DNA of 36,502 nt from a virus. Lineage: Duplodnaviria > Caudoviricetes. The stretch is taken from IMG/VR virus record IMGVR_UViG_3300020319_000007, positions 1 to 36,502 of that record. One strand, given 5' to 3'. A program made the translations under genes and the position numbers. The stretch's first letter is position 1; every line of letters starts with the position of its first letter. The notes under the pieces were generated by a model that had not been told where the DNA came from, searched no databases, and worked only from the letters and a program-made list of their open reading frames with translations. Below, piece after piece: positions 4,798 through 24,848 of the stretch.

Positions 4798-6182
4798 TGG
4801 CAGTTTTATACAGTAAAGAAAGATCTAAGTATGGTAATCTAACAGGTCAAATTATAAATTGGCCAGTTGATTACAGTGGATTACCAGACGACGGAGCAAA
4901 TAAAAATAATTTACCTGCTGGTTATTTAAAATGTGATGGCACAAAATATTTTGCTGCTGATTATCCACAACTTGCTGCTATATGTGGAGTAGGAACTAGT
5001 TGCAAGTTCTTACGAAAAAATGCAGATGGCACTGATTTTGATACCTTATTAGACACTCAATTTATGGTTCCTGATATGGGATCTAAGTATGCAGAACCAA
5101 CTTCAGGTGCTAACGCTGGTGTGTATAATAATATAAGACTAGATAATTCTTTAGGTAATGAGTTTAGTAGATCTGGTATTGGTATTGAAGCACAGTCTGC
5201 TATAGGAAGTCCTGTTAATATAGAATACACAGGACAGATTAATGTTCCTAGTCAAGAGATTGAAGTTAAAGGCAAACCATCATGGACATACGCTGGTGCT
5301 ACTCATTATACTGATACAGAGGGTGTTGAAGAAAATGCTATTCATCCACATTCACATTTTCATAATGCTCTTAGAGAAAGAATATTAACAACTAATGAAC
5401 CAAGTAGTAATGAACCACAGGTGCAAGGATTTGCTGGATACAGAAATGCGTCAACAATTCCTATACAGGATTGGTTAGATGCTACAAAAAATGGTAGTAA
5501 TTCGCCTGGAAGTGGTCAAGAACAATGTCGTACTCAGCGTTGGTGTCCTGTTAGTCCTTGTGGAAATGCAGTTAGTACTCAGTTAGCTGGATTACAACAA
5601 ACAATTTATTGGGGTCATTGCATTCAAGGTGGTTGGGAACCAGGTGGTACTCAGTACACATATCAATGTCTTAATAATGTACAATATTCTTTGGATGGTG
5701 GAACATTAAATGGATCACCAGATGGACAAAACACTGCTTACTATGCAAATATGCTTAATGCTCCTTTATTTGGAGTATGTATATCTATCGGTGGTGGTGC
5801 ATCAGCATCACATAATTTTACTGTTCCTGTAACATATGCTAATGGATTACAAGGTGTGCCACTAGATTCTAATAGTGTAAGTTTATATGATGTTATGCCT
5901 ATGCAATCAAACCAAGAGGTTAGTACAAGTAGAGTAGTTCCTGATGTACAGAACAATGAAACTGATACTGCTGATCTAGCTCAACCAAGTGGTGATCCAA
6001 CATTACATAATCATCGTGTTGATTTAGTCAAAGGTGATCATACATATAAAGTAAAAACAAATGCTATTGTTGTTAATCCAGAAAATTTATCAACAACAAT
6101 GACTGTGGGAGCTGATGCTTCAAGATCAATTGATTCTGCAACTGCTCCATTTATTGTGATGGAATTTCTAATTAAGATATAA
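4797..6182 (+). CDS. Tail collar domain protein 2
   Basis: GQIINWP...PAGYLKCDGTKY...YPQLAAICG...FMVPDM collar motif; HPHSHFH and HNH motifs; ends 'MEFLIKI'; TAATG coupling to the upstream gene. Confidence 0.85.
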   Translation: MAVLYSKERSKYGNLTGQIINWPVDYSGLPDDGANKNNLPAGYLKCDGTKYFAADYPQLAAICGVGTSCKFLRKNADGTDFDTLLDTQFMVPDMGSKYAEPTSGANAGVYNNIRLDNSLGNEFSRSGIGIEAQSAIGSPVNIEYTGQINVPSQEIEVKGKPSWTYAGATHYTDTEGVEENAIHPHSHFHNALRERILTTNEPSSNEPQVQGFAGYRNASTIPIQDWLDATKNGSNSPGSGQEQCRTQRWCPVSPCGNAVSTQLAGLQQTIYWGHCIQGGWEPGGTQYTYQCLNNVQYSLDGGTLNGSPDGQNTAYYANMLNAPLFGVCISIGGGASASHNFTVPVTYANGLQGVPLDSNSVSLYDVMPMQSNQEVSTSRVVPDVQNNETDTADLAQPSGDPTLHNHRVDLVKGDHTYKVKTNAIVVNPENLSTTMTVGADASRSIDSATAPFIVMEFLIKI

Positions 6183-9100: not shown

Positions 9101-10039
9101 GGAAATGGTGCAACAGCAACACCAGTTATGACTAATGGTTTAGTTACAGGCATTACTGTGACTTCTTCTGGTTCTGGATATACTGAAACACCATATGTTT
9201 ATGTGTTGCATGGTCAGAGTGGAGGAACAATTGCAACTGCAACTCTAGGAAGTGGAGGTAACTCTGATAAAGTTGATAGTATTACTGTCGCATCAGGATC
9301 ATCAAAAGCATATTCAAATTATGTGTTATTTGGTGGAGCACATACTCAAACTGCTATTGGTGCTAAGACAAGATGGGTAGAATTGATGCCTGTAGATACA
9401 TCAAATGCTACTCATTTTTCTATCAAGGCAGCAAGAGGAAATGGTGTAAATGGTGGTGATGCTTCAGAAGAATCAATGCAAATCTATTATTCAACAGCTG
9501 GATCTCCTACTACTTGGATACTTGTTGACACTATCATTGCAGGAAGAACTACACCAAGAACTGATCCTTTTGCTGGTACTATACCTCAAGTTGATTTGAA
9601 TAGTAATTGGGATGGTGCTGCTGGTGATACTAAATGGTATACTTATACTGTTTCACTACCACAAAATGCAAAAGCAGCAGGTACTAATTTCAAAGTAGAA
9701 CAAGTACGTGCTGATTCATCATCTACAAATGATAATGCTGGTAATACAGATCACTTTGCAATTTGTGAATTTGTATGGTGGAATGGAAAGGCAACTACTT
9801 TAGTATATGTTCCTACTGCTGGTAAAATTCTTAAGAATAATGTTGACGCATTAACATATACTGTTCAAGGTGAAGTGGGACCTTCTATAACATATAGTTC
9901 TGGTCTTGGTTGTAGTGATGCCACATTGACATTGAAAGCAACAACTAAGATTGAACCACAAGCAACTATTGATCCAGATATAGATGTACCATTATTACAT
10001 CCATATAGAACATGTAAATACTTAATTAAAGCATATTAA
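6185..10039 (+). CDS. Tail collar domain / glycine-rich tail fibre protein 3
   Basis: PIGSIV...GYLYCDGTEY...YPGLYQIVGSKYGG...FKVPDL collar motif; GSGYTSxPTV-type repeats; long Gly-rich segments; ends 'CKYLIKAY'. Confidence 0.85.
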   Translation: MTQGYRNARKGYLTDLLTDTTPIGSIVTNLKAGQNSYDHSFVKATASNYPNLTESAGNAYVAGDSPAYTHEGYLYCDGTEYNIGDYPGLYQIVGSKYGGRSSNGIDVVNGGSGYTTSSVVTITAAPTGGVNMEATVGSVDSNGKILYLNVTNSGSGYTSVPTVSVAGGTSATFTLRMTDLTAQGGATLQPINTNNVLENWGDQYLGTFKVPDLIAKKVVGNGPVYGNNSPNIGNVSIATGTTGGAWYLDKDQQDEYFSLGTIVTSGYDQVIETTGCTIIGSQDVTISMRERKLSGVPQHSHIMYHSTPGGAEWVGGASGDRYLQDYKASTGRVTRWYPTGDGIVLTHKHGLLRQPLTDNTVATYDSLDYAGGAGGTGGTADPTAAFATGANEPGDYYLASGSGSGSYEFQTTIPNPICKPILTTTQLGGKLSTTGGTPIFDNSNEFEYTVPGTYTIDLTAITGTFDRLTYQMYGGGGSGGAGTQTGNNGTESHLKVGDGSKVFLKAAGGEGGGATSGLQGGLGKSGGASINTGSETAPGAITGQAGSAGTAGNSGNGWPYLDYPSNPNGGGSGGAQTGSYSDGSAGINVLVGGQSGSSTQEFTGDGTFNLTGITGLTSVTFELHGGKGRDSFYGGLAGGGGGKINISLKQSELANFTTAGWTCQIGPGATAKDGAQTSSSGDGGAGGNGHPGGSGTAHGGGGGAATALLRNGTCVAGAGGGGGGGSNGYDGGPGSPGQGNPLGGIQGTAQSLGMGGGGPGGNYGCIGGGGGGGGGGCGTPGQITGGVGNGGGSGGVGGGPGGDGGHGGGAGGNQGISSYSTNYFSTGTLVDSSLTNGKVIMVASYNNDYWTPGGGGGGAGGIWTGYVQFTNLGNPASVEVKVGSGGAGVSMSGQTTGTSNNGGDGYAKVQLGIITGYDNPQQITTSDALIKSASFSNTVDDVTINTNGAGTGTAGGFKLPTADPIVLISGGGGNGATATPVMTNGLVTGITVTSSGSGYTETPYVYVLHGQSGGTIATATLGSGGNSDKVDSITVASGSSKAYSNYVLFGGAHTQTAIGAKTRWVELMPVDTSNATHFSIKAARGNGVNGGDASEESMQIYYSTAGSPTTWILVDTIIAGRTTPRTDPFAGTIPQVDLNSNWDGAAGDTKWYTYTVSLPQNAKAAGTNFKVEQVRADSSSTNDNAGNTDHFAICEFVWWNGKATTLVYVPTAGKILKNNVDALTYTVQGEVGPSITYSSGLGCSDATLTLKATTKIEPQATIDPDIDVPLLHPYRTCKYLIKAY

Positions 10040-18121: not shown

Positions 18122-18653
18122 GGTTTTTCCACAGGCACTATCATCTAATACATGTAAGTTAATCATTGATAGATTTGAAGAGTCACCACATAAGAAAGAA
18201 GGTATCGCAGGACCATTTAATCATGGTGTTGCAAAGATAAAAGATTCAACTGACATTACTGTTAAAGGACAACAAGACGATCCAATATTAAATGCAGTAG
18301 AACCATGCTATCATGAATATTGTAATAAGTATGGTTATCTTAAACTCACAAGACAAATCAATGCAATAGATGCAGGATATAATCTACAAAGATATACAGA
18401 TAATCAAGGATTCTTCTATTGGCACTGTGAACATTCAATGCATCATCCTAAACGAACAATAGCATGGATGGTATACTTAAATGATGCTGAATGTGGTACA
18501 ACATGGATGCATCAAAACTATACAAGTCAAGCAAGAGAAGGTGATATATTAATATGGCCAGCATCATGGACACATGCACATAAAGGAGTTACACCTAACA
18601 TCGGAACCAAGTATATTGCAACAGGATGGATGAGTTACCATAGTATAAGATAG
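18108..18653 (+). CDS. 2OG-Fe(II) oxygenase (prolyl-hydroxylase-like)
   Basis: 'WHCE' (HxD/E), 'WMVYLND', 'WPASWTHAHKG' (distal His) and 'KYIATGW'; ATG 18108 is the likelier start. Confidence 0.9.
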   Translation: MNFIEVFPQALSSNTCKLIIDRFEESPHKKEGIAGPFNHGVAKIKDSTDITVKGQQDDPILNAVEPCYHEYCNKYGYLKLTRQINAIDAGYNLQRYTDNQGFFYWHCEHSMHHPKRTIAWMVYLNDAECGTTWMHQNYTSQAREGDILIWPASWTHAHKGVTPNIGTKYIATGWMSYHSIR

Positions 18654-18704
18654 TCAAGGATACTACCCTTTCAACACAAGTGTCCGCACATTGATATGAC
18701 TGAG

Positions 18705-18736
18705 TTTTCCACAGGTTTTTGAGGTATTGTGGAAAA
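18705..18736. promoter_or_regulatory. Inverted pair of DnaA-box-like 9-mers
   Basis: TTTTCCACA 18705-18713 and TGTGGAAAA 18728-18736. Confidence 0.55.
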
Positions 18737-18783
18737 GTATTGAAATCATTAAATAAATATAGGTAAGGTGCGGTGTTGTTGCT

Positions 18784-18812
18784 GTCTTAGGCTGCTATGT
18801 ATCAAAAGTCAA
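18784..18812 (-). promoter_or_regulatory. Leftward sigma70-like promoter
   Basis: On the - strand: TTGACT (18812-18807), 17 nt, TAAGAC (18789-18784); the -10 is imperfect. Confidence 0.45.
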
Positions 18813-18840
18813 CCCCTCTGTAACAAACTGAAATATTCCG

Positions 18841-18898
18841 AGTCCTGTTAACGAACTGTCACACAAGACTTGACAAAACTCAGAAAATCGGTTATATT
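18841..18898 (+). promoter_or_regulatory. Strong early promoter
   Basis: AACTGTCAC half-site (TGTCAC 18857-18862); TTGACA 18870-18875, 17 nt, TATATT 18893-18898. Confidence 0.85.
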
Positions 18899-19009
18899 AG
18901 AAACATGGGAATCTGAGAAACTTCAAAAACTTAAAAAGTCGCTTTTTATAAAGTTTGGAAATCTTAAATAAAGTGTATTTTTAGGTTTTTGGGGTTTTTT
19001 TCTTTTAAC

Positions 19010-19030
19010 TTTTCCACAGATTGTGGAAAA
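19010..19030. promoter_or_regulatory. Inverted pair of DnaA-box-like 9-mers
   Basis: TTTTCCACA-GAT-TGTGGAAAA, a perfect inverted repeat preceded by a T-rich tract. Confidence 0.55.
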
Positions 19031-19062
19031 ACTCATAAAATCAACTTTATTTCTTAATTAGA

Positions 19063-19308
19063 ATGACACTTTACTCAAATTTCTTCAGTTCGGCGGTAAA
19101 TTCAGTAGAAACAAAGCCAGATAAGGTATTAATTAGATATTCTTCAAATATTGAGAAAGAATATGTATATAATTGTGAAAATGTAGCAGAATTTACCAAT
19201 GAGCTGTGTTCTGTTCTTACATCTAATGAGTTACTGCAAGATGGTGGCAGTGTGGGCAAGTTTATCCACAAATCTAGACAAAACAACACATTGGTAGAAT
19301 CTAAATAA
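19063..19308 (+). CDS. KTSC-like domain protein, 81 aa
   Basis: 'SSAVNSV...VLIRYSS...EYVY...F...GSVGKFIH' matches the KTSC pattern SSxIxSxxY...LxVxF...YxY...SxGxxFN. Confidence 0.6.
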   Translation: MTLYSNFFSSAVNSVETKPDKVLIRYSSNIEKEYVYNCENVAEFTNELCSVLTSNELLQDGGSVGKFIHKSRQNNTLVESK

Positions 19309-19334
19309 TTGTAATTTCATTCAATTAAACCACA

Positions 19335-19487
19335 ATGGGTTCAACTCGCAATTTCAAGACTCACTCAGATGAGTATGGGACAGATTACGGCAAATACAGC
19401 ACTGAGGTTAAAAACATTAGAAGAGGTAGCAGGAAGAAGGTAGCAAAACATAAGGAGTACCAACCGTGGGAGGAGGACAGTTATTAA
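19335..19487 (+). CDS. Hypothetical basic protein, 50 aa
   Basis: Read by hand: MGSTRNFKTHSDEY...RRGSRKKVAKHKEYQPWEEDSY; stop codon lies inside the next promoter palindrome. Confidence 0.65.
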   Translation: MGSTRNFKTHSDEYGTDYGKYSTEVKNIRRGSRKKVAKHKEYQPWEEDSY

Positions 19488-19532
19488 ACTGTCACACAGG
19501 TAGTAGACAAACACCCTAAAATGGGTTATATT
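19474..19532 (+). promoter_or_regulatory. Early promoter cassette head
   Basis: GACAGTT-ATTA-AACTGTC palindrome 19476-19493; TAGACA 19504-19509, 17 nt, TATATT 19527-19532. Confidence 0.75.
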
Positions 19533-19567
19533 ATAAATGGTCGTCCAAGAGATCACCGACCCACTAT

Positions 19568-19625
19568 GTGACAATCATATTAGTGGCACAACATCGGTAG
19601 ATTTCTTGGCGATCTCGTCTATAAT
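19568..19625 (+). promoter_or_regulatory. Early promoter cassette head
   Basis: GTGACA-N10-TGGCAC 19568-19589; TATAAT 19620-19625; leader AGATTTCCAA before ATG 19651. Confidence 0.85.
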
Positions 19626-19650
19626 ACAGTCATACGACACAGATTTCCAA

Positions 19651-19812
19651 ATGGTCACAATCACACTCACAACAGAAGAAGCAGCAGCATACGTTGCAGC
19701 ACTAGAGAGGGCAACAGATAACCCTTTCATCCAAGATGACGACGAGTGCTCACCACTCTTCACCCTTCAAGGTCACATTGAAGGTGCTCTATACAACACA
19801 TCATCAAACTAG
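19651..19812 (+). CDS. Hypothetical early protein, 53 aa
   Basis: Start reassigned to ATG 19651, after the promoter and shared leader (MVTITLTTEEAAAY...). Confidence 0.7.
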   Translation: MVTITLTTEEAAAYVAALERATDNPFIQDDDECSPLFTLQGHIEGALYNTSSN

Positions 19813-19820
19813 GAGTTACC

Positions 19821-20141
19821 ATGAGAAAGATTGAAGCACAGATGAACGCAGCAATTGCAGGTCGCCGTAACTGGGCAAAAGATAACACCCGTGTTGAGGT
19901 TAACAAGCACGGCGACACCTTTGTTTACCTACACGGTCACAACATCGCTACGATATCCAACGAAGGTGACATCAGATTGTCATCATGTGGATGGGAGACA
20001 GTCACCACTAAATCCAGGTTGAACGCAATCCTTGACTGCTTTGTACATAACATCGGCATCTTTCAAAGGGACTGGCAGTGGTACATCACAGGCAGAGACT
20101 TCACAGAACCATTTTTTGATGGATATCTAATAGAGCGATAA
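19821..20141 (+). CDS. Conserved phage early protein, 106 aa
   Basis: AGGAG SD; 'VYLHGHNIA...GWETVTTKSRLNA...FQRDWQWY' motif set; function unknown. Confidence 0.85.
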   Translation: MRKIEAQMNAAIAGRRNWAKDNTRVEVNKHGDTFVYLHGHNIATISNEGDIRLSSCGWETVTTKSRLNAILDCFVHNIGIFQRDWQWYITGRDFTEPFFDGYLIER

Positions 20142-20154
20142 GGTCCTTTCCCAT

Positions 20155-20201
20155 AAACTCAGAAAGTCACATTTTTGACTTTTTGAGTTTTTTTGTTTTT
20201 T
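20155..20201 (+). terminator. Long AT-rich hairpin followed by a T-tract
   Basis: AAACTCAGAAAGTCA (20155-20169) pairs with TGACTTTTTGAGTTT (20176-20190; one G-U), then T-runs. Confidence 0.6.
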
Positions 20202-20320
20202 GATATATTTACTTTTATGAATAAAACCCAAATACCAACTAGTTGCAATAATGAACTGCTACCTTGGTTCCTTTACGTAATAACTCGTAAATTGATTAGA
20301 TCCGTTCTAAATGTTACGAA

Positions 20321-20350
20321 TTGATAACATTTGGAATTATATGGTATAAT
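20321..20350 (+). promoter_or_regulatory. sigma70-like promoter without the upstream palindrome
   Basis: TTGATA 20321-20326; TGgTATAAT with -10 at 20345-20350. Confidence 0.6.
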
Positions 20351-20373
20351 TAGTAATAGGACTCAATAGACTC

Positions 20374-20508
20374 ATGTTCAACTTCCAACAAGAAATAGAG
20401 GATCAGCTTAGAGAAATAAGAGAGCAGTACGGTGAAGAGGTACTGAAGGAATTACTGGATCAGGACTACTACGACGGTGAATACTGCAATCCTCCAGTAT
20501 ACCGCTGA
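20374..20508 (+). CDS. Hypothetical acidic protein, 44 aa
   Basis: Read by hand: MFNFQQEIEDQLREIREQYGEE...; follows the promoter. Confidence 0.65.
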   Translation: MFNFQQEIEDQLREIREQYGEEVLKELLDQDYYDGEYCNPPVYR

Positions 20509-20612: not shown

Positions 20613-20882
20613 ATGCCACAGTCTACAGATTCCAATTACGATGCCTTGGTTGAACAATACGCAGAGATCGTCACTGACAGATTGCACAGTGAAGGATCAT
20701 TATATGACTTTGCACTTGAAACTCTCATAGATCGTTATGAGAACCTGACTGAAAAGGATCTAATAGAACATGTCGCCGAGATGGGGGACGAAGAACTCGT
20801 TGAATCCATTTACGGGAACTACCCACCGCAAGACATAAAGGGACAGTACTCGTTAAAGAAAGGAGAGTCTATAGTAGTATGA
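20613..20882 (+). CDS. Hypothetical acidic early protein, 89 aa
   Basis: First ATG after the promoter; the TGA stop is part of the next palindrome. Confidence 0.8.
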   Translation: MPQSTDSNYDALVEQYAEIVTDRLHSEGSLYDFALETLIDRYENLTEKDLIEHVAEMGDEELVESIYGNYPPQDIKGQYSLKKGESIVV

Positions 20883-20936
20883 CAATATTATTAGTGGCAC
20901 ACTATCACTTGTGAAGTGGTGGTGTCTTGCTATAAT
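20879..20936 (+). promoter_or_regulatory. Early promoter cassette head
   Basis: ATGACA-ATATTATTAG-TGGCAC 20879-20900; TGcTATAAT with -10 at 20931-20936; leader AGATTTCCAAACT-ATG. Confidence 0.85.
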
Positions 20937-20962
20937 ATAACTATACATAAGATTTCCAAACT

Positions 20963-21463: not shown

Positions 21464-21624
21464 TGAACAACTACGTAGCACTATTAACTCTCATAGGTGA
21501 CATCAACAATGCATTTTGTCACCTAGAGGATGAGGAGTCATGTGACATTTGTGATGGTGACATCAAACTGTTAGATAAGGCAGTCAAACGATTTAAAAGT
21601 CAAGTCTGGGAAAATCAGTTGTGA
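21463..21624 (+). CDS. Hypothetical protein, 53 aa
   Basis: Read by hand: MNNYVALLTLIGDINNAFCHLEDEESCDICDGD...; TAATG coupling; stop lies inside the next palindrome. Confidence 0.7.
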   Translation: MNNYVALLTLIGDINNAFCHLEDEESCDICDGDIKLLDKAVKRFKSQVWENQL

Positions 21625-21678
21625 CAATATTATTAGTGGCACATCATGTATTGATATGTTGTGTCACTATGGTATTAT
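21621..21678 (+). promoter_or_regulatory. Early promoter cassette head
   Basis: GTGACA-ATATTATTAG-TGGCAC 21621-21642; TTGATA 21651-21656; TATTAT 21673-21678; shared leader. Confidence 0.85.
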
Positions 21679-21705
21679 TATAGTATACAAACAGATTTCC
21701 AAACT

Positions 21706-22633: not shown

Positions 22634-22662
22634 AGTAGTATAAACAAACAGATTTCCAAACT

Positions 22663-22907: not shown

Positions 22908-22934
22908 AATACTATACAAGCAGATTTCCAAACT

Positions 22935-23204: not shown

Positions 23205-23209
23205 TCGTG

Positions 23210-23890
23210 ATGCTGTCAACAGAATTCCCTCTCACCCACGACATCACGGGCAGAGACAAAAAAAAGACAGGCAAACAGGTAGGATCTCAACCGAAGGGGT
23301 GGGGTTCTATCTATATCGCAGAATCAGAGAATTGTGCAGTTACAGAATTATCTAATGGTGAGTGGACTTGCTTTAAGATAGGTCTAGCAAGCGATGGCGA
23401 AGCTTCATCATTTAAAATAAAATGTGATCAAGCGACAGGCAACTCAGGCAATTACTCTCAGGTAAGGAACTACCCAGTTAAGAACGTAGGCAAGGCAGAA
23501 GCAACAGCACACCAAATTTGGAGGGGTAGAGGATACAGCACAATCAAAGGAGCTGACCACAATGTCCCCGAAGAATTCAAAAGATTTTTTGATAAACAGA
23601 CTGGTGGCACTGAGTGGTTTTGTGTCCCTCGTCAATTACTACTGGATGAGATGGACAAATGGTATGCCACATATAAAGGCAAATCTAATATAGTATGGAC
23701 TTGCGACTGGATAGGGCAATCATTACACAATGACCCAATCATATTTAAATACAACGAGCAAGGGTTGCCAGTGGTTGCAAACTGGAAGGGACGCACAGGC
23801 AGACCAGTTGAGATTGAAGCAATTATATTTGCATGGGACTACCGAGTCATGACAGGATTTGCACCAGAGGGTTGTTGTAGTGCCAATTAA
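23210..23890 (+). CDS. T5orf172/GIY-YIG-like domain protein
   Basis: 'GSIYIA...FKIG...QATGN...AEATAH...GGTEWF' motif order; start could be 23207 (GTG) or 23210 (ATG). Confidence 0.7.
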   Translation: MLSTEFPLTHDITGRDKKKTGKQVGSQPKGWGSIYIAESENCAVTELSNGEWTCFKIGLASDGEASSFKIKCDQATGNSGNYSQVRNYPVKNVGKAEATAHQIWRGRGYSTIKGADHNVPEEFKRFFDKQTGGTEWFCVPRQLLLDEMDKWYATYKGKSNIVWTCDWIGQSLHNDPIIFKYNEQGLPVVANWKGRTGRPVEIEAIIFAWDYRVMTGFAPEGCCSAN

Positions 23891-23937: not shown

Positions 23938-23965
23938 TATTATATAAACAGATTTCCAAACATTT

Positions 23966-24326: not shown

Positions 24327-24560
24327 ATGCCAGACAACACATTTATTTACGACACAGTGTATCAGGAGTTCATGGAAGAACTTCAGTTCACACCAGATGA
24401 GATGAGCGAAGCGATTATGTTTGATGAGGATCGCACCATATTTGATCAACTGATGGAAAGAGTCAAGCACACACAGTGGCAAGACGCACAGCGGTTGGCA
24501 TGGATGCAAGGCGAACCACCAGAGTTTGAGAGACGAGTCCCCGAAGACTGTCCATTTTAA
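24327..24560 (+). CDS. Hypothetical acidic protein, 77 aa
   Basis: ORF track 24315-24560; ATG 24327 preferred. Confidence 0.7.
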   Translation: MPDNTFIYDTVYQEFMEELQFTPDEMSEAIMFDEDRTIFDQLMERVKHTQWQDAQRLAWMQGEPPEFERRVPEDCPF

Positions 24561-24758
24561 AATCAGGGCATTGATAAGGCAAGGGTGAGCGACCCCAGAG
24601 GAATATGCTCTTAATGTTTGGAGACCTCTTATCATGTAAGTCCCATTGCTATGAGTTGACCACTCAGAACTGTGTACATACCAGTATAAACTATGAGACG
24701 CATGGAATTTGCGAGGGGGACAGGTCATCCCCCGACAACCACACACATTAACAGAGAC
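24561..24758 (+). ncRNA. Candidate structured non-coding RNA (family not recognised)
   Basis: Gap without a credible ORF that holds nested helices and two hairpins with complementary loops (TGACC / GGTCA); ends at a terminator. Confidence 0.5.
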
Positions 24759-24788
24759 AGGGCAGTTATTTTATAATTGCCCTTTTTT
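24759..24788 (+). terminator. Intrinsic terminator ending the early region
   Basis: Stem AGGGCAGTTAT / ATAATTGCCCT, followed by a T-run. Confidence 0.85.
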
Positions 24789-24848
24789 GTTGCCTGAGCC
24801 GTGCAAAAACCGATAAGTCCCTAACCTACAAAAGTATCCAAACGAGCG

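Follow-up and report, generated by a model that had tools for sequence, protein, structure and literature searches.

The window analysed here, a 36.5-kb stretch of viral DNA (36,502 nt), is a piece of a T4-like marine cyanophage in which tail-fibre genes, a DNA methylase gene and a 2OG-Fe(II) oxygenase gene are followed by an island of small genes and by baseplate wedge genes. The named phages are all distant from it, the large baseplate wedge protein sharing less than 60% identity with the nearest, and when named phages were searched at the nucleotide level the only match was a piece of 47-106 nt lying upstream of the island's first promoter. Besides that promoter, nine further cassettes were located with a profile built from the upstream box and -10 hexamer that the cassettes have in common; we infer them to be early from their sigma70-like promoters and repeated layout. 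The gene content of the island differs among relatives. Nearly all cassettes, here and in relatives, carry a TGTGACA-N10-TG[GT]CACA inverted repeat 5' of the -35 position (for example at 20876-20901 and 21622-21644), which looks like the site of a dimeric transcription factor. A 227-aa ORF of the island (23207-23890) weakly matched T5orf172 (GIY-YIG-like; E 0.009). The non-coding stretch 24560-24790 contains a GCAAGG...GGTGAG...CTCTTTATGTTTGGAGACCTCTT pattern that recurs in several relatives (for instance from L434:2859 onward) and had no Rfam match; it is a candidate for a second conserved leader RNA.

The promoter previously singled out as the strongest, TTGACA-17-TATATT at 18870-18898, was confirmed; it scored 11 of 12, tied with two sites, and was alone in having a perfect -35 hexamer. 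The stretch of about 160 nt said to follow it untranslated is indeed 158 nt long, but it is not strictly untranslated, as a mini-ORF begins at the predicted +1 (Table 1). An ATG occupies this position in 75 of 87 related leaders, a count obtained with a +1 placement rule that favoured such starts, and the mini-ORFs opening there in relatives span 3-46 codons.

Table 1 Coordinates of the features described in the window.
Feature	Position	Strand	Remarks
DnaA-type box, upstream member of the cluster	18125..18133	+	
Two DnaA-type boxes in opposite orientations	18705..18736	.	Upstream of the first promoter
First early promoter	18856..18898	+	Upstream CTGTCACA box common to other cassettes, then TTGACA-17-TATATT; layout kept in relatives
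Predicted +1 and mini-ORF ATG GGA ATC TGA	18905..18916	+	Includes the 5' seed TGGGAATCTG
Hairpin 1	18915..19000	+	Predicted 23-bp lower stem rich in G-U and 6-bp upper stem; U-run at the end
Apical loop, 22 nt	18946..18967	+	Invariant in the lineage; 13-mer at 18952-18964
Hairpin 2	19010..19030	.	Inverted DnaA-type box pair TTTTCCACA / TGTGGAAAA
81-aa KTSC-like protein (phrog_4357)	19063..19308	+	TTATCCACA box at 19262-19270
Target tag, 11-nt exact match	19641..19653	+	Runs into ATG 19651
Terminator-like hairpin after the Kyano_Gp96 gene	20155..20190	+	Same A-tract unit as the leader; L064 counterpart bears an antisense-like loop
Target tag, 15-nt match	20948..20962	+	Before ATG 20963 (Api92-like, DUF1281_C)
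Target tag	21693..21705	+	Before ATG 21706
Target tag	22650..22662	+	Before ATG 22663
Target tag	22922..22934	+	Before ATG 22935
Target tag, 12-nt exact match	23950..23962	+	Before ATG 23966

The preliminary description had also noticed that the first leader contains a 13-mer, AGTTTGGAAATCT, complementary to a word standing before the start codons of several cassettes. Both the sequence and its position were verified, as were the exact sense copies AGATTTCCAAACT at 20950, 21693, 22650 and 22922, the weaker copies at 23950 (one mismatch) and 19641 (two mismatches), the 15-bp duplex with the leader at 20948-20962 and a second seed, TGGGAATCTG (18906-18915), that pairs with CAGATTTCCA using one G-U. 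This 5' seed is replaced by the exact complement GGAAATCT in L075 and L095 and by GGACATCT in sister lineages. Of the nine downstream cassettes detected, six have the tag and three lack it. Degenerate or lost tags do occur, as in L095, where the word reads ACATTTCGGATCT, and in the 20613 cassette, which is untagged in the window and tagged in several relatives; just inside the coding sequence of the latter, CAGATTCCAATT (20630-20643) is predicted to pair weakly with the 5' seed (-6.5 kcal/mol), which may be a chance of coding. With up to two mismatches allowed, the window holds eight matches to the 13-mer against a shuffle mean of 1.76, and none of 100 shuffles reached eight; the eighth match, at 4828, was judged unrelated. 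When the leader was dinucleotide-shuffled 20,000 times, the full 13-mer appeared in one shuffle; no more than 8 nt of it, in either orientation, were present in any of 73 leaders outside the lineage described below.

The tag is quasi-palindromic (AGWTT-N3-AAWCT), and none of the eight leaders checked contains a Shine-Dalgarno-like word (GGAG, GAGG or AGGA). Target tags were predicted to be mostly unpaired. Approximate net binding energies computed for the six tagged leaders ranged from -11.1 to -17.5 kcal/mol, compared with -6.5 and -3.6 kcal/mol for two untagged leaders and with -8.8 kcal/mol for the best of the untagged starts among 48 long + strand ORFs. The tag at 19641 may share a read-through transcript with the antisense 13-mer.

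The first leader (18905-19065) is predicted to fold far better than its shuffled versions (z = -4.86; 0/200 shuffles), and the dominant element, hairpin 1, comprises 29 bp in total and presents the 13-mer within an apical loop of about 22-24 nt. Neither this placement in a loop nor the DnaA-box cluster round the promoter was part of the preliminary description, which had named burial of the seed in stable structure as evidence against pairing; the 13-mer was instead predicted to be exposed, with a computed opening cost of 1.7 kcal/mol, and the apex bases TGGA had unpaired probabilities of 0.73-1.0 in all 14 leaders of the lineage. The 5' seed was predicted to be partly paired in the full leader and largely free in a 92-99 nt form, and such a product, with its freer seed, is possible because the stem of hairpin 1 ends in a U-run.

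The upper stem has been rebuilt: 13 of its 18 columns vary, and L090 and L096 differ by a double change from A-U to G-C. In the lower stem, which changes hardly more than the loop does, 5 of 46 columns vary; no double-sided change was found in its 23 bp, paired changes numbered 3 against 3.2 in shuffles, and RNAalifold did not recover the hairpin from a 23-row alignment. G-U types occurred in nine lower-stem column pairs and A-C types in two (p = 0.03), an excess that could also stem from transcription-linked mutation bias. The + strand folded better than its complement in 23/23 leaders of the same length, but across all lineages in only 29 of 44 clustered leaders. A hairpin acting at the RNA level is best supported, from these comparisons, in the loop-bearing lineage and its nearest sisters. 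The arms of hairpin 2 vary without compensation, with 67.6% of cells paired. Throughout 18905-19062 and in all related KTSC leaders we also observed a 9-nt periodic array of A-tracts and T-tracts, with a unit like AAAACTCA in both orientations; these repeats could bind a protein. The unit recurs at 20155-20190 and in the untranscribed promoter spacer (18876-18892), and given the latter occurrence hairpin 1 may be a by-product of a DNA repeat array.

Relatives of the locus were collected by searching viral and metagenome contigs with the 81-aa protein (80 of 110 metagenome matches were kept), and loop and tag were counted in the 90 non-redundant loci with at least 650 nt downstream. Loop and promoter-linked tag occurred together in 12 of these, the loop never occurred alone, 76 had neither and the remaining two carried a one-mismatch tag site that is a DnaA box. 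The tag was therefore present in 12/12 loci with the loop and in 0/78 without it; a looser count found both in 17/17 loop loci and a tag-like word in 1 of 48 loop-less loci. An exact 17-mer scan of viral contigs returned 39 stretches, of which three were the window locus and the others unrelated. Since the loop-bearing phages together make up one side of a single branch (support 91/27), loop and tag have a single origin; the two loop-bearing subclades are separated, in the KTSC gene, by about 0.43 substitutions per site. The proposed conservation of the antisense seed was borne out, as the 14 distinct lineage leaders all have the same 22-nt loop, with no change in 91/91 pairs, also at 35 or more differences elsewhere; nine sister leaders of the same length averaged 3.25 loop differences at nine or fewer differences elsewhere. 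Of the covariation also anticipated, what was seen is the joint presence or absence of loop and tag, following one origin, and nothing base by base.

On the target side, we gathered 39 promoter-linked contexts, tolerating at most two mismatches within the first nine bases, and dropped one unrelated row; more degenerate tags lie outside this cut-off. The core AGATTTCC, which faces the accessible loop apex, is invariant in 38/38 contexts, a number that represents about ten cassette families; near-copies inflate this and every other count. Position 9 of the tag varies only from A to G, compatible with G-U pairing, and positions 11-13 vary freely. The core stays 2-8 nt from the AUG. In the loci of the lineage, no tag was found upstream of the first promoter save for a single occurrence within a gene. 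Among sister phages many cassettes have no leader, and those of the loop lineage have tagged leaders of about 20 nt.

The first gene of the island had been described as KTSC-like and its product as a possible chaperone of the RNA. The fold assignment stands, with 7x8c as the top structure at Z 6.8 (rmsd 2.5 over 65 residues; next structure 4.7), a Z below 8 being moderate; the model itself had a pLDDT of 72, and Foldseek ranked 7x8c only 42nd (E 3.0). The PF13619 profile did not match the window protein at E up to 1 and matched two of 11 distant homologues at 17.9 bits, below the cut-off of 25; one named homologue is annotated KTSC, and a PDB sequence search with the KTSC-like alignment found nothing. 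A 2022 study by Tian et al. reportedly connects, by its title, KTSC with single-stranded nucleic acid binding. The chaperone role is unsupported, as every lineage has the gene whether or not it has the loop; the KTSC gene served to find all loci, loop-bearing or not, and its co-transcription with the leader consequently says nothing about chaperoning. Nucleic-acid binding by KTSC is mentioned in one sentence of a review (PMC7824862). The KTSC-like proteins of the lineage (window vs L002 and L075) have two different N-terminal halves and one shared C-terminal half, which is at most a weak hint. The window-type gene encodes the TTATCCACA box in frame.

Contigs assembled from RNA runs cover the leader and the island, as assemblies that carry no strand or end information, and one of them bridges the leader, the KTSC-like gene and the next ORF, which is no proof of one transcript. 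A contig start at 18907 was considered as the transcription start and dropped because contigs of two other runs cross the promoter. Host messages did not stand out as targets: across 71 genomes from an unrelated family of cyanobacteria the 13-mer was about as frequent as the controls, and in 61 genomes of a small-genome genus eight of ten fetched 13-mer sites were checked, all eight lying inside coding sequence.

Round the first promoter the window is also rich in DnaA-type boxes. Six of its eight TT[AT]TCCACA boxes lie within 1,146 bp (18125-19270; P ~1e-5), and all six fit the DnaA consensus and are clustered; a similar concentration round the promoter is found in relatives and in some named phages. 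The word TTTTCCACA has been named as a cyanobacterial DnaA box (PMC5987646). Clusters of such boxes, spaced by 12 or 21 bp in named phages, were noted in S-RIM44 (L426:3371-3403), S-SKS1 (L427:449-499), AG-345-P14 (L425) and Syn9 (L422), and none was present in the P-HM2 stretch examined. The arrangement resembles a cyanobacterial oriC in that TTTTCCACA boxes point both ways and also form a 12-bp tandem next to AT-rich DNA (PMC5987646), and differs from it in lying on a phage, round the first early promoter, and in that the tag departs from the box at two positions. We regard the cluster as a candidate DnaA-dependent origin or DnaA sink; GC skew does not switch at the locus. The box tandem of sister phages adjoins dnaA or dnaN in 8 of 23 bacterial loci picked from 120 listed, and in four of the seven cyanobacterial ones.

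These boxes bear on the history of the tag. A box stands directly before the ATG in 17 of 48 loop-less loci vs 0 of 17 loop-bearing loci, and the sister orthologue of the 20613 gene has a DnaA box where the lineage has the tag. Because sisters carry TTTTCCACA before the ATG and a box cluster surrounds the promoter, the tag may descend from a DNA site, and its ancestor was probably a DnaA box; the layout of a sense word before the ATG and an inverted word in the leader probably pre-existed, likewise, as DNA sites. The present tag AGATTTCCAAACT nevertheless agrees with the DnaA consensus TTWTNCACA at only 7/9 positions and has lost the CACA end. This loss speaks for a conversion from DNA box to RNA tag, as do the invariance of the tag where DnaA boxes are free, the failure to find it in untranscribed promoter DNA and the newly placed complement, now at the hairpin apex, with the canonical boxes retained.

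An antisense leader is not a general feature of cyanomyoviruses, since 28 other loci that have two or more leadered cassettes, examined over the 200 nt ahead of the KTSC gene, all lacked a cognate complement exceeding 7 nt. In the distant phage L064 (also L468 and L514), however, ACTAAACA precedes five start codons (tags at 9829, 11215, 11733, 13585 and 15834), and a single inverted copy lies in a 12-nt loop that caps a 17-bp hairpin downstream of the gp96 gene (L064:8868-8920). A strict screen found a cognate loop in one of eight non-lineage clusters with a shared 8-mer (six of them with loops), compared with 8/486 for non-cognate pairs, giving p ~0.1 for L064. That screen missed the window's own loop, and a folding-based screen missed L514 and L075 and returned two further matches at the non-cognate rate (L158 and L491), so neither measures prevalence well. 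A search for a close relative of L064 found none. We take L064 to be suggestive of a second, independent loop-tag system with an unrelated motif. Complements of 9 nt in L453, L491 and L492 were rejected as lying in promoter spacer or apparent coding sequence.

The reading that we favour, tentatively and short of calling it probable, is repression of the early regulon by pairing of its tags with the loop of the first leader. The strong first promoter would let the leader RNA accumulate, perhaps partly as the 92-99 nt product with its 3' end at the U-run that follows the stem; the loop apex UUGGAAAU would nucleate on the target core AUUUCCAA, and the resulting duplex, covering about -13 to -1 of the AUG, would block ribosome loading. 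Pairing would then lower the translation or speed the decay of the six tagged early messages together, with an outcome like the delayed shut-off brought about by T4 RegB, here effected by RNA. The tag, as argued above, likely arose from the DnaA box still found at that position in sister phages. Repression of this kind claims no pairing role for the KTSC-like protein. It is supported by an exact match beyond chance, by the invariance and accessibility of the loop, by the co-occurrence of loop and tag, by the G-U types and + strand preference of the stem, by the steady closeness of the tag to the AUG and by the like layout of an unrelated motif in L064; the single origin, the lack of stem covariation over shuffles, the 0/28 other loci, the p of ~0.1 for L064 and the likeness of the tag to the DnaA box of sister phages count against it. 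The wider proposition that a hairpin of T4-like cyanophages serves as a one-to-many antisense master switch, that a DnaA box became an RNA address tag and that the design re-arose in L064 is possible, and on balance we find it rather doubtful.

The preliminary description had offered an orientation-independent DNA operator as its alternative, and this gained support because orthologous sister positions hold DnaA boxes; we rank it behind RNA pairing, as its main and a real rival, and consider it on balance unlikely. The tag would then be a double-stranded site derived from a DnaA box, bound by host DnaA or a phage protein and acting as a repressor site or roadblock after early starts, the antisense copies would be inverted operators of the first promoter, and the hairpin would be a palindromic A-tract array in an origin-like region. 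Such an account draws on the clustering of boxes round the promoter, on the boxes that sisters carry directly before the ATG, including that of the 20613-gene orthologue, on the inverted box copy in nearly all first leaders, on the sister tandem beside dnaA or dnaN and on the A/T tracts every 9 nt in all KTSC leaders. It fits poorly with a tag that breaks DnaA rules, in which the positions left free in the box (W3 and N5) and the AG flank are invariant; moreover, the same phages keep canonical boxes upstream, untranscribed promoter DNA yielded no copy of the tag, conservation within the quasi-palindrome is highest at the centre and lowest in the 3' half, and no candidate repressor was identified. 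Improbable in our judgement is the simpler view that the tag is a mere initiation element of leaders devoid of a Shine-Dalgarno sequence, spread by cassette recombination, and the loop an old, non-regulatory inverted copy kept for folding or spacing. The leaders of many relatives do end in pyrimidine-rich or CA-rich words, lineage-specific motifs that have no complement, T4-like phages are known to use repeated early promoter cassettes as units of recombination (PMC4122927), and conservation of the lower stem nearly equals that of the loop; an inert copy would hardly have stayed unchanged across subclades as divergent as these two when the same loop positions are free in sister phages, and the 5' end of the leader has also changed towards complementarity.

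Pairing might instead be protective, shielding an AU-rich nuclease site, or act in cis on the 19641 tag of its own read-through transcript in the manner of C4, which we hold to be very improbable. The AGAUUU in the tag, which we take to fit the RNase E consensus, was counted for protection, and the position of 19641 before the first terminator-like hairpin (20155), together with the bridging RNA-run contig, for action in cis. As the duplex would, from established knowledge, cover the ribosome footprint beside the AUG, repression is favoured over protection, and the four perfect sites are served by promoters of their own downstream of the terminator. Least probable of those weighed is a tuning of tag and loop to tRNA-Gly(UCC), in which the tag would mimic the anticodon arm and the host tRNA could be captured by the loop; early expression would thereby be coupled to tRNA-Gly, or an enzyme directed at anticodons would be decoyed. 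In cyanobacteria the arms of tRNA-Gly(UCC) have the pattern AG-N-Y-TTCCAA-N-CT, and the tag fits the constant positions, with 10/13 identity to the arm in a 1.7-Mb cyanobacterial genome that may not be the host's; 30 tRNAs were compared with 206 other leader ends, none of which reached that level in register and one of which did in any register, and viral tRNA-Gly genes dominated a scan for the tag pattern (tRNA loci L607, L613 and L190). The likeness was found post hoc, however, the tag is not predicted to form the arm, and no tRNA gene lies in the window. The loop-arm duplex reached -11.0 kcal/mol before opening of the anticodon stem, compared with -16.6 kcal/mol for the tag, and tRNA-Arg(CCU) scored -10.8 kcal/mol; since the loop binds the tag so much better than the tRNA arm, mimicry was kept as a minor rival.

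Repression by the leader loop has partial counterparts among known systems. Rfam models run over the window gave no family at the gathering score and six weak matches (E 2-10) judged to be chance, and the C4 model had no match at E up to 10 in 18500-20500. C4 of phages P1 and P7 derives from the 5' part of a longer transcript, and its loops pair with same-strand targets and partly occlude ribosome-binding sites (PMC5320573). The leader resembles it in a loop complementary to same-strand target initiation regions, here seen in sequence and predicted structure, and differs in having one long hairpin and a short one instead of three stem-loops, and six separately promoted targets in a T4-like phage, whereas C4 acts in a temperate-phage immunity operon; the leader, as we read it, works like C4 but is not a member of that family. 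SviR of the Vibrio satellite PLE is one small RNA addressing several phage or satellite transcripts (bioRxiv 10.1101/2022.04.08.487710), and other trans-acting phage sRNAs have been reviewed (PMC12197685). Unlike in these, the targets predicted here from sequence share one repeated start-codon tag of a repeated cassette, and there is no helper-satellite conflict of the SviR kind.

T4 RegB is an endoribonuclease that cuts GGAG in Shine-Dalgarno sequences and shuts off early mRNAs (PMC9409239). What we propose shares with it a motif common to the initiation regions of many early mRNAs that leads to their joint switch-off, but the leaders checked here have no GGAG and the proposed effector is an RNA loop. 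PeSL cassettes carry a stem-loop 5' of the promoter and a Shine-Dalgarno sequence at their 3' end (PMC4122927). The island matches them in its repeated sigma70-like early promoters within a hyperplastic region, each heading a small cassette, and departs from them in its upstream TG[GT]CACA box and tag, without the 3' Shine-Dalgarno sequence; the available text on PeSLs does not describe a complementary master copy (PMC4122927). Among T4-like cyanophages, the non-coding RNA CfrI of S-PM2 is cis-antisense to psbA, and wcaG, manA, glnA and PhotoRC-II are cyanophage cis-regulatory elements of Rfam (PMC9602691, PMC12197685); none of these four elements matches the window.

A literature search found neither the antisense switch nor the promoter DnaA-box cluster described, an earlier mention of the promoter motifs or boxes being possible. 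To our knowledge, the turn-off of early genes in T4-like cyanophages has not been worked out. If repression by the loop is true, shut-off of six cassettes, each with its own promoter, by one phage RNA that addresses a common tag would be a compact mechanism, and loop and tag would form a ready-made orthogonal repressor-tag pair. Should the tag be a DNA site after all, the box cluster would point to host DnaA in cyanophage replication or early control and would name a candidate origin. If the hairpin is the master switch, the shut-off of host-takeover genes would be timed by RNA.
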